Source: an uncultured Lachnospiraceae bacterium
Lineage (GTDB): Bacteria > Bacillota > Clostridia > Lachnospirales > Lachnospiraceae
DNA length: 64,000 nucleotides
Assembly: GCA_947623805.1 (NCBI GenBank)
Contig: CANQHZ010000004.1
Coordinates: 4,118 to 68,117, forward strand
Reading direction: 5' to 3'
Positions 60,998 to 63,945 of the stretch are shown here, piece by piece (the first letter of the stretch is position 1; each line of letters opens with the position of its first letter). The notes below the pieces were generated by a model. It was given only the letters and a program-made list of their open reading frames with translations, was not told where the DNA came from and searched no databases. The translations under genes were made by a program, and so were the position numbers.

Positions 60998-61029
60998 AAA
61001 TGCAACATTTTGTCTAAAATGTTGCATTT
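60998..61029. repeat. Left recombination-like site (14-bp arms, GTCT core)
   Basis: aaatgcaacatttt-gtct-aaaatgttgcattt; 30/32 identical to the reverse complement of 62018-62049. Confidence 0.88.
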
Positions 61030-61060
61030 TTTTAATATTGTTTTTGTTCTTACACCTTAT

Positions 61061-61087
61061 ATATCGGTCTTTATTCGGAATACTTTA
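61061..61087 (-). promoter_or_regulatory. Sigma-28 (SigD/FliA) promoter pointing leftward
   Basis: Minus strand TAAA-N15-ACCGATAT versus the B. subtilis SigD consensus TAAA-N14-16-GCCGATAT. Confidence 0.78.
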
Positions 61088-61159
61088 CCCCTTATTTAAA
61101 AATTTTTAATTTATTTTGAAAATTTCTAAGAATACCGCCCAAATTTTCACCAATACCTA

Positions 61160-61325
61160 GCCCGCACATAGCAATATATCCCATGAAGCCCGTTGGAATG
61201 CGTCGGTACTTAGCGAAACAAGCTGCAAAAGCGTAGCTCCTTTTGCAGCGCCGCTGAGCTTAGTACCGCTACGCTTTCCACTAAGCGCAAGCGGGGCTGA
61301 ATGGGATATATTGCTATGTGCGGGC
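61160..61325. repeat. 166-nt nested palindrome (rod-like hairpin)
   Basis: Perfect 25-bp terminal inverted repeat plus inner stems tggaa/ttcca, gcgt/acgc, cggtact/agtaccg and gctgcaaaag/cttttgcagc. Confidence 0.9.
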
Positions 61326-61353
61326 GACCCAGTGCCAATTAATCAAGCAACTG

Positions 61354-61944
61354 TCAAAGCGCCATCCTCATAAACACCCTATCACGCTCATCCTGCTCTA
61401 TCCCCAAATACCGTTTCGTTATAGCAAACGACGAATGATTATATATATTCATAATCAAAACCGACGAAACCTTATTCCGCGCAGCAAAATACCCAAAAGT
61501 CTTTCTCAACGAATGACAACCAATATTACCATCAATCCTCAATACCTGCGCAGCCGCCTTAATAATACGATATGCCTGCGAGCGACACAGCGGCTTGTTA
61601 GTGCTGCGCCTGCCCACAAATATATAACAATCCGCCCCTATTGACATATTCTTGTCATCGCAGTATTCCATCAACCTCTCCAATGCGCGGACCACTTCCT
61701 TATTTAAAAATACCTCATTTCTCTTATGCGTTTTTTTCTCAATGATTTCCAGATGCCGTCTAAAACCACGTTTTTTGAAGTCATAGACATCATTCCATTT
61801 TAAATTAAGAATATCGCTTATGCGCAAAGCCGTGTTTATCCCTACGCAGAAAAGCGCATAATTTCGTATCTCTTTTCTCCCTAAAAAGTATTTTTTCATA
61901 GCGTCGATTTTTCTCTTATCCTTGATTGGCGACATTGCTCCCAT
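61354..61944 (-). CDS. Catalytic-domain-only tyrosine recombinase
   Basis: NTALRISD, EKKT, HSLRKT, NH, TKRYLG; start 61944 with SD AAGGAGG. Confidence 0.92.
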   Translation of the reverse strand: MGAMSPIKDKRKIDAMKKYFLGRKEIRNYALFCVGINTALRISDILNLKWNDVYDFKKRGFRRHLEIIEKKTHKRNEVFLNKEVVRALERLMEYCDDKNMSIGADCYIFVGRRSTNKPLCRSQAYRIIKAAAQVLRIDGNIGCHSLRKTFGYFAARNKVSSVLIMNIYNHSSFAITKRYLGIEQDERDRVFMRMAL

Positions 61945-61984
61945 GATTTTTCCTCCTTTGATGCTTCCTTGCACCAGCAGTCTA

Positions 61985-61995
61985 ATTTTATCACA
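61985..61995 (-). promoter_or_regulatory. Extended -10 (TGTG-A-TAAAAT) promoter of the recombinase
   Basis: TRTG-extended -10 box inside the invertible segment, 40 bp upstream of the ATG. Confidence 0.55.
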
Positions 61996-62017
61996 AATTT
62001 GTTTGCTGCGAAATATC

Positions 62018-62049
62018 AAATGCGACATTTTAGACAAAATGTTGTATTT
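62018..62049. repeat. Right recombination-like site (AGAC core, inverted relative to the left site)
   Basis: aaatgcgacatttt-agac-aaaatgttgtattt. Confidence 0.88.
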
Positions 62050-62109
62050 CCCCAAAACATAAGTTTTTCAAAATGCATTAAAATCGTGGATAAAACAAGG
62101 AGTTTTTAT

Positions 62110-62328
62110 ATGTTAATGCTCACTGTGCCAAAAGAAGAATACCTGATGATAGGAAAAGATGTAAAGATTACTTTTTTGGGAGGGAATGACAGACAGTTTC
62201 GTGTGATGATAGATGCTCCTAAGGACGTAAATATCGCAAGGGGCAAGGCGATTAAGAAACGTGCAGCAAAGAGGGCCGCTAAAAAAGTCGCGGAGCGGCA
62301 ACCAGATGAAAATGTTCAGCAGGCATAA
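62110..62328 (+). CDS. Divergent CsrA-like carbon storage regulator
   Basis: MLMLTVPKEEYLMIGKDVKI...RVMIDAPKDVNIAR; SD AAGGAG; start moved from 61969. Confidence 0.75.
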   Translation: MLMLTVPKEEYLMIGKDVKITFLGGNDRQFRVMIDAPKDVNIARGKAIKKRAAKRAAKKVAERQPDENVQQA

Positions 62329-62452
62329 GAAAGTAAATCAGGAAATGATTTAAAGAAGTTAATAACCAGGGCTGTCTGTAAAAGCAGGCGCGCCAAGAGA
62401 CAGACAGCTTTGGATATTATAAATTAAAACTGAATAGAGAACAAAACAATCG

Positions 62453-62473
62453 GTGGAAAACGGAATTTTCCAC
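62453..62473 (+). promoter_or_regulatory. Putative CsrA-binding hairpin in the flagellin leader
   Basis: gtggaaaa-cGGAa-ttttccac stem-loop just upstream of the AAGGAGG SD. Confidence 0.6.
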
Positions 62474-62496
62474 GGCGAAAACAAGGAGGTAGTATT

Positions 62497-63945
62497 ATGG
62501 TAGTACAGCACAATTTACAGGCAATGAACTCTAACAGAATGTTAGGCATCACACAGGGCACATTATCAAAGTCCACAGAGAAGCTTTCTTCTGGTTACAA
62601 GATTAACCGTGCAGCAGATAACGCAGCAGGTCTTGCTATATCAGAGAAGATGAGAAAGCAGATTAGAGGACTTACACAGGCATCAGCAAACGCTGAGGAC
62701 GGTATCTCATCTGTACAGACAGCAGAAGGTGCATTGACAGAAGTACACGATATGCTTCAGAGAATGAACGAGCTTGCAGTACAGTCAGCAAACGGCACAA
62801 ACTCAGAAGATGACCGTCAATACATTCAGGACGAAATTGACCAGCTTACACAGGAAATTGACCGTGTAGCCGAAACAACTAAATTCAATGAAACATATCT
62901 CTTAAAGGGTGACGCAAGTAAGGATAAGGGTTATACATATGCGTATAAGACTGTTGGGGCAGCAATTCCAGCGACAGCTTCTTTTGCCAATAACTCACCT
63001 TCAGGTCTTGAGGTAAAAAGTATAGGTTTTAGCAAAGGTACTTCAGAAGAACAGAATGAGCTTTTAAAAGCGCTTCGCAATCAGGGTGTTACAATCAGCA
63101 CCTATACTGTTGCAGTTGGCGAAGGTAAAGACGCAACGGAAAAGGTATATTATGCACTTGAGCTTAACGGAAGCGATGCTAAGAGCAATTACAAGGTTCA
63201 GGTAAGTGGTGCGGATGCATCAACTGGTCAATTTAACATCGTTAATGCTGATAATGAAATAATAGCTACTATAGAAGTAGGTGGTAGCACCGAAGCAGGA
63301 AAGAGCGGAATAATCACAGCAACTACCATTACTGCGGCAAGAGTAGAGGGCGAGGTATATGCTTATTACGATAAGGATGGTAATAAGATAGCTGCCAATG
63401 CATTAGGTGATTATTTTACGGCAGACTCTAAGGGCACTCCTAGCGCAAGAGCAGATGCAAGAAAGGTGTATGATGCTGTAGGAAATGAGATTGGTTTGGA
63501 TGCTAAAAATGTAACTGCTACGAAGAACAAGACAGCAGCTCTTAACCTCAGATTCCATGTAGGCGCTGACGGCACAAATAACAACAAGATTTCTATTAAC
63601 ATTGACGCTCTCACAGCTAAGGGACTTGGCATCAATGGTTTGAAGGTTGACGGCAGCGACGGCACAAAGGCAACAGATGCAATCTCTGTTATCTCACAGG
63701 CAATCAAGATTGTATCTACACAGCGTTCAGCTCTCGGTGCAGTTCAGAACCGCTTAGAGCATACGATTAACAACCTCGACAACATCGTAGAGAATACAAC
63801 ATCTGCAGAGTCAGCAATCCGTGATACAGATATGGCTGATGAGATGGTTAGATACTCTAACAACAACATCCTTTCACAGGCAGGTCAGTCAATGCTTGCA
63901 CAGGCTAACCAGTCTAACCAGGGCGTACTTTCATTACTTGGCTAA
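62497..63945 (+). CDS. fliC: Flagellin
   Basis: MVVQHNLQAMNSNR...EKLSSGYKINRAADNAAGL; C-terminal LGAVQNRLEH...IRDTDMADEM...VLSLLG. Confidence 0.98.
   Translation: MVVQHNLQAMNSNRMLGITQGTLSKSTEKLSSGYKINRAADNAAGLAISEKMRKQIRGLTQASANAEDGISSVQTAEGALTEVHDMLQRMNELAVQSANGTNSEDDRQYIQDEIDQLTQEIDRVAETTKFNETYLLKGDASKDKGYTYAYKTVGAAIPATASFANNSPSGLEVKSIGFSKGTSEEQNELLKALRNQGVTISTYTVAVGEGKDATEKVYYALELNGSDAKSNYKVQVSGADASTGQFNIVNADNEIIATIEVGGSTEAGKSGIITATTITAARVEGEVYAYYDKDGNKIAANALGDYFTADSKGTPSARADARKVYDAVGNEIGLDAKNVTATKNKTAALNLRFHVGADGTNNNKISINIDALTAKGLGINGLKVDGSDGTKATDAISVISQAIKIVSTQRSALGAVQNRLEHTINNLDNIVENTTSAESAIRDTDMADEMVRYSNNNILSQAGQSMLAQANQSNQGVLSLLG

Follow-up and report, generated by a model that had tools for sequence, protein, structure and literature searches.

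Positions 60998 to 62049 of the stretch analyzed here, a 64,000-nucleotide window of contig CANQHZ010000004.1 from an uncultured Lachnospiraceae bacterium (assembly GCA_947623805.1; contig C4 below), very probably constitute a self-contained invertible promoter cassette, i.e., a phase-variation switch in which inversion of the segment would connect a sigma-28 promoter with a csrA-like gene and a flagellin gene (fliC). An earlier note on this DNA, made from the letters alone, had proposed a recombinase-driven inversion of a sigma-28 promoter at this place, and the comparisons reported here support it: the cores of the recombination sites covary across the family, related cassettes are found in opposite orientations, and a homologous promoter precedes an unswitched fliC on contig C3 of the same genome.

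Recombination sites, recombinase, and promoter of the cassette

A repeat search returned as its top inverted repeat two arms at 60998-61029 and 62018-62049 (32 nt, 94% complementary, 30/32 positions, spacing of 988 nt), for which the chance expectation, roughly estimated for a 32-nt inverted match with at most two mismatches in 4 kb, is about 1e-8 to 1e-9. The left site reads AAATGCAACATTTTGTCTAAAATGTTGCATTT and the right site AAATGCGACATTTTAGACAAAATGTTGTATTT, and both are palindromic, with 14-nt arms (AAATGCAACATTTT and AAAATGTTGCATTT) around a 4-nt asymmetric core, whose sequence is GTCT in the left site and AGAC in the right site, just as the earlier note had described them. Since the core is the sole asymmetric part of each site, the two sites are inverted relative to each other.

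Between the sites lies the gene of a tyrosine recombinase that matches Pfam PF00589 (Phage_integrase) over residues 17 to 181 with 88.8 bits (cut-off, 27.1; E = 4.5e-25). Its residues R42 (ALRISD), H145-x-x-R148 (CHSLRK), H171, and Y180 (TKRYL) are invariant across 15 relatives of 42 to 85% identity, and because of this invariance the recombinase looks active, in agreement with the previous description of an intact catalytic enzyme; the catalytic lysine is tentatively assigned to K72 or K75. The best PDB match is the XerA catalytic domain, with the catalytic domains of XerC and XerD also among the best solved relatives. The FimB/FimE-type models NF007371 and NF007370 are matched weakly over their full length (39.8 and 38.0 bits; E = 3e-10 and 1e-9), with scores far below the NCBIfam cut-offs of 222 and 221, which places the enzyme outside the FimB/FimE family; its likeness to these proteins is limited to size and single-domain build. 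The extended -10 promoter that had been ascribed to the recombinase is recovered as a consensus match on the minus strand (62012-61985).

The putative sigma-28 promoter, TAAAGTATTCCGAATAAAGACCGATAT (61087-61061; consensus TAAA-N15-(G)CCGATA(A/T)), is indeed near consensus and fires leftward, as had been noted. The same motif stands at the same position in 4/4 paralogous cassettes of this genome, and there are only 50 occurrences of the strict motif on the two strands of 3.96 Mb. The genome also encodes a FliA/WhiG sigma factor that scores above the curated cut-off, and the three things by which a sigma-28 promoter would be recognized in sequence, namely, the motif, the sigma factor, and the same motif ahead of a late flagellar gene, are all present. 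Neither CGATA nor CCGAT was found on the plus strand from 62050 to 62496, in line with the earlier remark that a CCGATA-type -10 box is missing between the right site and fliC, and a consensus scan of the plus strand between the proximal site and the fliC start returned no sigma-70-like site.

In-silico inversion between the cores moves the promoter to 61960-61986 (plus strand), where it lies 31 bp ahead of the right site and faces csrA-like and fliC, close to the distance of about 30 bp that had been anticipated. At the motif level, the inner promoter would thus face the gene in one orientation only, as expected of an inverton. The predicted OFF transcript has a hairpin and then UUUUUU, and the predicted ON transcript has a hairpin and then UAUUUCCCC. 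A T-run follows the distal site, so the OFF site should act as an intrinsic terminator, and with its flanking A-run and T-run it reads as one that doubles as a bidirectional terminator; the proximal site is followed by no T-run, so the ON promoter should transcribe csrA-like and fliC. The ON junctions predicted for this locus are ACCTATAATTAAAAAATGCAACATTTTGTCTAAAATGTCGCATTTGATATTTCGCAGCAAA on the left and AACAATATTAAAAAAATGCAACATTTTAGACAAAATGTTGTATTTCCCCAAAACATAAGTT on the right, also written as ...AAAAAATGCAACATTTTGTCTAAAATGTCGCATTTGATATTTCGC... and ...CAATATTAAAAAAATGCAACATTTTAGACAAAATGTTGTATTTCCCCAAAAC....

Covariation of the site cores across Lachnospiraceae

The recombinase has homologues in 21 of 60 relative genomes, with six copies in one genome of the same genus, and a scan of species-representative genomes returned more than 560 loci, almost all of them in Lachnospiraceae. 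The hosts include the isolates COE1, 3-1, and 3-2, Petralouisia muris, Velocimicrobium porci, and Anaerocolumna sedimenticola, as well as metagenome-assembled genomes (MAGs) of Roseburia; the closest relatives are from the guts of rabbits (MAGs) and hares (metagenome contigs). The position of the cassette beside csrA-like and fliC is retained down to about 42% recombinase identity.

Comparing 29 distinct site pairs, all of the form TGCAACA-N12/13-TGTTGCA, we observe that the central regions fit better inverted than direct in 28 pairs and better direct in none, with 28 different central sequences being represented. Independent terminators have no reason to carry complementary loops, whereas paired recombination sites need a matching crossover, and the covariation therefore favors recombination sites. 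The pairs have the inverted repeats with an asymmetric crossover region that are expected of an inverton.

Homologous recombinases also lie between inverted sites of other families, e.g., GATAACATTTT...AAAATGTTATC and GGTAACATTTTGTAGTAGAATGTTCAC, at loci that have neither a flagellin nor a csrA neighbor (L056, L059, L061, L063, L072, L095, L101, L109, L110, L133, L148-L150, and others). These are probably further invertible cassettes with other targets.

Related cassettes in opposite orientations

A search of related loci for the opposite orientation, as the earlier note had proposed, yielded four pairs, in all of which the breakpoints are at the sites and both flanks are syntenic. In the pair formed by Lachnospiraceae bacterium COE1 (L085) and a mouse MAG (L053), the flanks and the segment are 74 to 86% identical and the segment is reversed, with the outer-arm differences staying with the flanks and the inner-arm differences with the segment. 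The other three pairs, which show the same arrangement, are closely related metagenome contigs from different samples (L172/L173, L159/L153, and L191/L189). When L172 and L173 are aligned, the segment matches at 98% identity on one and the same strand, and the two flanks match in reverse. In the ON contig (L173), the promoter leads into the site, AAGGAGG, and then the csrA-like start codon ATG, and the OFF contig (L172) has the site and then TTTTTT. Counting those cassettes in which paired sites, a promoter motif, and a neighboring flagellin gene are all present, we find 41 OFF, 1 ON, and 1 two-flagellin toggle in the species representatives and 29 OFF and 3 ON in the metagenome contigs. A narrow ON-state pattern gave 0 matches in 401 Lachnospiraceae genomes (one per genus), a result that is uninformative given how narrow the pattern is and its lack of a denominator.

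Several loci depart from the common design. Two cassettes of Anaerocolumna sedimenticola (L073 and L076) were considered as ON and rejected; their promoter is again directed away from fliC, and they were scored OFF. They follow a second design, with promoter and recombinase divergent inside the segment. At L062, a switch-type promoter drives fliC with no intervening csrA and the sites are degenerate; from its sequence, this locus looks locked ON. The toggle in the tally is L055 2728-4805 (mouse gut MAG MGBC164205), where two divergent flagellin genes that share a 463-bp inverted duplication of leader and N-terminus flank the recombinase and the sigma-28 promoter, and inversion would move the promoter between the two flagellins, making a biphasic toggle with no OFF state. 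In L153 (1-63) and L159 (3817-3879), the distal flank, too, contains the start of a gene whose ribosome-binding region is similar, 44 nt from the site, and both contigs stop at the same base; one promoter may alternate between two targets in this species. Contigs that end 41 to 44 nt past the distal site had been entertained as a signature of mixed-orientation assembly, and this was rejected, a repeat being the likelier cause because the L153/L159 distal flank begins such a gene. The 1409-bp scaffold L108 of Lachnospiraceae bacterium 3-1 is a perfect palindrome of two 702-nt halves, running through one cassette out and back through the site, and is an assembler artefact at an invertible segment.

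Four cassettes and five flagellins in one genome

The window's own assembly, searched with the site pattern and the recombinase, holds four paralogous cassettes, namely, that of the window and those on contigs C68, C11, and C20, each adjoining its own csrA-like/fliC pair. In 4/4 cassettes the order is the same (distal site, outward sigma-28 promoter, recombinase, proximal site, csrA-like, fliC) and the promoter is directed away from fliC, with recombinase identities of 67 to 85%. The site arms are common to the four, the cores differ (GTCT, CGGGC, CTGGACAG, and TGGATA), and the cores are reverse-complementary within each cassette pair that has both sites. With shared arms but different cores, the four cassettes should be able to flip independently and without cross-recombination. 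On the C11 contig (L006 8182-8373), an isolated 63-amino-acid frame about 1.1 kb past the distal site corresponds to a flagellin C-terminus and is probably the remnant of a further flagellin gene.

A fifth fliC, a close paralogue on C3, has no cassette; ahead of it come fliW, csrA, and then, about 235 nt from its start, TAAAGTATTTGCGATAAGAGCCGATATATAAGGTGTAA. This sequence resembles the ...ACCGATATATAAGGTGTAAGAAC of the switch promoter, which indicates homology between the latter and a flagellin promoter that is fixed in the same organism. The unswitched gene has the same leader hairpin as the switched fliC genes, downstream of its sigma-28 promoter. The window fliC has conserved termini and a variable middle, and the five flagellins of the genome are 86 to 100% identical at their termini and 17 to 56% identical in their middles, except for C3 versus C20 (91%). 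This is the pattern that would be expected of antigenic variants. Given a different flagellin per cassette and one fixed flagellin, the set of flagellins produced would thus vary with the state of the switches.

The CsrA-like gene and the flagellin leader

The CsrA-like protein passes the Pfam cut-off of PF02599 (59.5 bits versus 27; E = 3.2e-16) and stays under the NCBIfam equivalog cut-offs (45.5 versus 73 for TIGR00202 and 31.7 versus 70.1 for NF002469), so it appears to be a divergent paralogue; a canonical fliW-csrA pair lies separately, on contig C3. In an alignment with Escherichia coli CsrA, L2, L4, V40, and R44 are retained, and V/P stand in place of R6/R7.

Two hairpins mark the leader of the window fliC: one (62360-62419) has a GCAGGCGCGCC loop, and the other (62453-62473) has GGA motifs and lies right before the Shine-Dalgarno sequence. 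The GCAGGCGCGCC-loop hairpin is common to the fliC genes of C4, C3, C68, C11, and C20, switched and unswitched alike; Rfam has no family for it, and it could be where CsrA or the CsrA-like protein binds. In Oscillospiraceae, CsrA paralogues linked to alternative flagellins are enriched on the 5' untranslated region of another fliC in RNA immunoprecipitation sequencing (PMC13418256). By analogy with that report and with Salmonella FljA, the CsrA-like protein is probably a translational repressor of competing flagellin mRNAs and may act via the shared leader.

Proposed mechanism and alternative explanations

We propose that the recombinase would bind the two palindromic sites, which are inverted by virtue of their cores, and that strand exchange within the core would invert the ~1.0-kb segment that carries the outward sigma-28 promoter beside one site. 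In the OFF state, as assembled, the promoter would read into the distal site and its T-run and transcription would terminate, with csrA-like and fliC having no recognizable promoter of their own; in the ON state, the promoter would stand just upstream of the proximal site and csrA-like and fliC would be made as one late flagellar transcript. The four cassettes would each control a flagellin with a different surface-exposed middle, with one more flagellin on a fixed sigma-28 promoter.

Several observations weigh against this mechanism. The promoter, the terminator, and the sigma-28 dependence are motif matches only. The window locus is seen only in the OFF orientation, in the assembly as well as in six low-coverage contigs apparently of the same species (picked by their exact csrA-like or recombinase protein), the three paralogous cassettes of the genome are likewise only OFF, and the family total is 70 OFF versus 4 ON. 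Furthermore, the distal site of the C20 cassette is interrupted by a repeated-element terminus at the contig end, and the missing partner of its site was not found in a genome-wide search; this cassette may be locked OFF. Given the 70:4 excess, switching to ON may be rare, conditional, or counter-selected, and the OFF bias is compatible with multiple loci of which few are ON at once, with host selection, or with asymmetric switching rates.

The single orientation of this locus and its three paralogues and the skewed family tally, along with the left palindrome and its T-run scoring as a terminator, would also suit a fixed arrangement in which the palindromes are merely terminators or hairpins of common origin and the recombinase serves otherwise, e.g., as the remnant of a mobile element. 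We consider such an arrangement quite improbable, since the loops are reverse-complementary in 28 of the 29 pairs with 28 different sequences, where independent terminators need not match, since the right site lacks a T-run, and since related sequences differ by precise, site-bounded inversion. The last of these observations also bears on the idea that the cassette, csrA-like, and fliC together form a mobile or exchangeable flagellin module, whose recombinase mainly integrates, excises, or swaps. The four to six copies per genome in varied contexts and the Rpn-like genes and repeated elements nearby would agree with a module of this kind; however, the sites are inverted and not direct in all loci examined, the cores differ between the cassettes of one genome, which should block inter-locus recombination, and the observed polymorphisms are inversions, so that we hold it to be very improbable indeed.

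A further possibility is that the segment does invert and that fliC nevertheless has its own, orientation-independent promoter, in which case the switch would govern only the CsrA-like regulator or the flagellin level. The 168-bp structured gap between csrA-like and fliC could house such a promoter, our promoter search was by consensus only, and CsrA paralogues linked to flagellins act as regulators in their own right (PMC13418256). The unswitched fliC, however, has a homologue of this gap in its transcribed leader, downstream of the sigma-28 promoter, the gap contains neither a CGATA-type -10 box nor a sigma-70-like site, and the switch-type promoter of L062 drives fliC with no csrA between, all of which makes a separate fliC promoter unlikely.

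The four cassettes and the fixed fliC might together make up a wider scheme of multi-locus antigenic variation, in which each flip would bring out one flagellin together with a private CsrA-like repressor that silences the competitors via the shared leaders, a cell would show one type at a time, and the OFF bias in gut assemblies would come from immunoglobulin A (IgA) and TLR5 pressure of the host. This scheme, which would be the equivalent of Salmonella fljBA with a tyrosine recombinase, is a tentative one, and we think it rather less than probable.

Comparison with known switches

We observe a clear convergence on the design of the Salmonella enterica Hin/H-segment (fljBA), reached with a different class of recombinase, and the parallel to hin/fljB with a tyrosine enzyme that the earlier note had drawn is apt. 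Both systems have a segment of about 1 kb, short inverted sites, and a recombinase and an outward flagellar class-3 promoter inside; in both, the promoter drives a flagellin and a post-transcriptional regulator of the competing flagellin, which is FljA in Salmonella and possibly the CsrA-like protein here. In contrast, Hin belongs to the serine invertases and depends on Fis and an enhancer, and the 196-amino-acid enzyme described here is a tyrosine recombinase, making the cassette an analogue and not a member of the Hin/H-segment type. The sites here are 32-bp palindromes of the TGCAACA-N12/13-TGTTGCA form, unlike those of Salmonella, the regulator gene precedes the flagellin gene here and follows it there, and this genome has four independent switches and one constitutive flagellin.

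Among tyrosine recombinases, the FimB/FimE enzymes of E. coli, which act on fimS, are likewise short (about 200 amino acids), consist of the catalytic domain only, and work on a promoter-bearing invertible element; their genes, however, lie outside the 314-bp element with its 9-bp repeats, and the fimS promoter is of the sigma-70 type and drives fimbriae. The flagellar switch of Clostridioides difficile is also found in a gut Firmicute, and there too a tyrosine recombinase (RecV) inverts a short element controlling flagellar genes. That element, of 154 bp, is in the leader of the flgB operon, and its effect comes after transcription has started. The gene for RecV, an enzyme shared by several switches, lies elsewhere, and the C. 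difficile switch governs the whole early flagellar operon, not individual flagellin genes.

The nearest described system is that of Flavonifractor plautii (Oscillospiraceae), where csrA-tldR-fliC loci are preceded by hin genes and by inversions of ~120 bp that carry a FliA promoter (PMC13418256). As in our cassettes, an invertible FliA-dependent promoter stands upstream of a csrA paralogue and an alternative flagellin in gut Clostridia, with several loci per genome. The published loci differ in that a serine Hin is encoded outside the ~120-bp inverton, where we find a tyrosine enzyme inside a ~1-kb inverton, in that their operon includes a gene for TldR (a nuclease-dead TnpB), and in the host family, which is Lachnospiraceae here. 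The window locus falls outside the hin/csrA-tldR-fliC class, as its recombinase is a tyrosine enzyme and the 168-bp gap between csrA-like and fliC holds no open reading frame (ORF), hence no tldR. The earlier suggestion that the switch is undescribed therefore stands in part: full-text literature searches found no description of this tyrosine-recombinase flagellin switch, whereas invertible FliA promoters before csrA-flagellin modules in gut Clostridia have, with the Hin-driven inverton of Oscillospiraceae, already been published (PMC13418256).

Significance for flagellin expression in the gut

The flagellins of Lachnospiraceae are among the main commensal antigens for the gut immune system. 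They include CBir1-type antigens in Crohn's disease and ligands of TLR5 and IgA. A widespread DNA switch for each flagellin, if true, would help explain how motility is combined with immune escape, and it could also account for why flagellins are expressed heterogeneously in the gut. Inverton finders that are set for short segments may overlook invertons of about 1 kb that have an internal recombinase; the default maximum repeat distance of PhaseFinder is 750 bp. The site consensus, together with the predicted junctions, makes the switch directly testable in metagenomes.

Other features of the locus

The coordinates of the cassette and of the adjoining genes are collected in Table 1. An Rfam search of 60300-64000 found nothing relevant, with a chance match to sau-5971 over the left palindrome (E = 0.05) as the sole match.

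Table 1. Features of the switch locus and the genes next to it (positions in the window)
Feature	Position	Strand	Remarks
Distal recombination site (left inverted repeat, IRL)	60998..61029		Palindrome, core GTCT; flanked by A-run and T-run
Sigma-28 (FliA/SigD)-type promoter TAAAGTATTCCGAATAAAGACCGATAT	61061..61087	-	Motif match; leftward, away from fliC
166-nt rod-like palindrome	61160..61325		Dispersed-repeat copy
Tyrosine recombinase, 196 aa, catalytic domain only	61354..61944	-	PF00589 match
Sigma-70-like promoter, extended -10 (TTCGCA-16-TG-TAAAAT), for recombinase	61985..62012	-	Consensus match only; inside segment
Proximal recombination site (right inverted repeat, IRR)	62018..62049		Core AGAC; no T-run after it on plus strand
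CsrA-like small RNA-binding protein gene, 72 aa	62110..62328	+	Pfam PF02599; would be first in switched transcript
Conserved flagellin mRNA leader, two hairpins	62360..62473	+	Common to unswitched fliC and paralogous cassettes
Flagellin (fliC), 482 aa	62497..63945	+	Flagellin_N 2.3e-45, Flagellin_C 6.4e-27

The 166-nt palindrome inside the segment was considered as a working part of the switch and rejected: it belongs to a dispersed repeat family of about 45 genome copies (78 to 93% identity), and 0/3 other cassettes carry one. By this comparison it is a passenger in the segment and not a conserved switch part. The 261-nt stretch 61100-61360 that contains it has a predicted folding energy of -114.8 kcal/mol (z = -8.7). 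The palindrome may serve as a terminator 3' of the recombinase gene, and the repeat family may be a MITE-like (miniature inverted-repeat transposable element) or REP-like (repetitive extragenic palindromic) element.

An ORF of 155 to 178 amino acids (60446-60982) lies between atpC and the distal site; in the OFF state, it and the switch promoter are directed toward each other. Neither Pfam nor NCBIfam returned a match for this ORF, and contigs apparently of the same species retain it. Just after fliC, at 63990-64000 and on up to where contig C4 ends, stands GGGGCTGTCGCACTAAGTAATTAGTGCGCAGCCTCATTTTTGTAAAAAAACTAACT, the terminal sequence of a repeated element. The same terminus occurs at C20:46599, in place of the distal site of the C20 cassette, and at the ends of C124, C196, C45, and other contigs, and the element that ends in this sequence, where many contigs stop, is probably insertion sequence (IS)-like.

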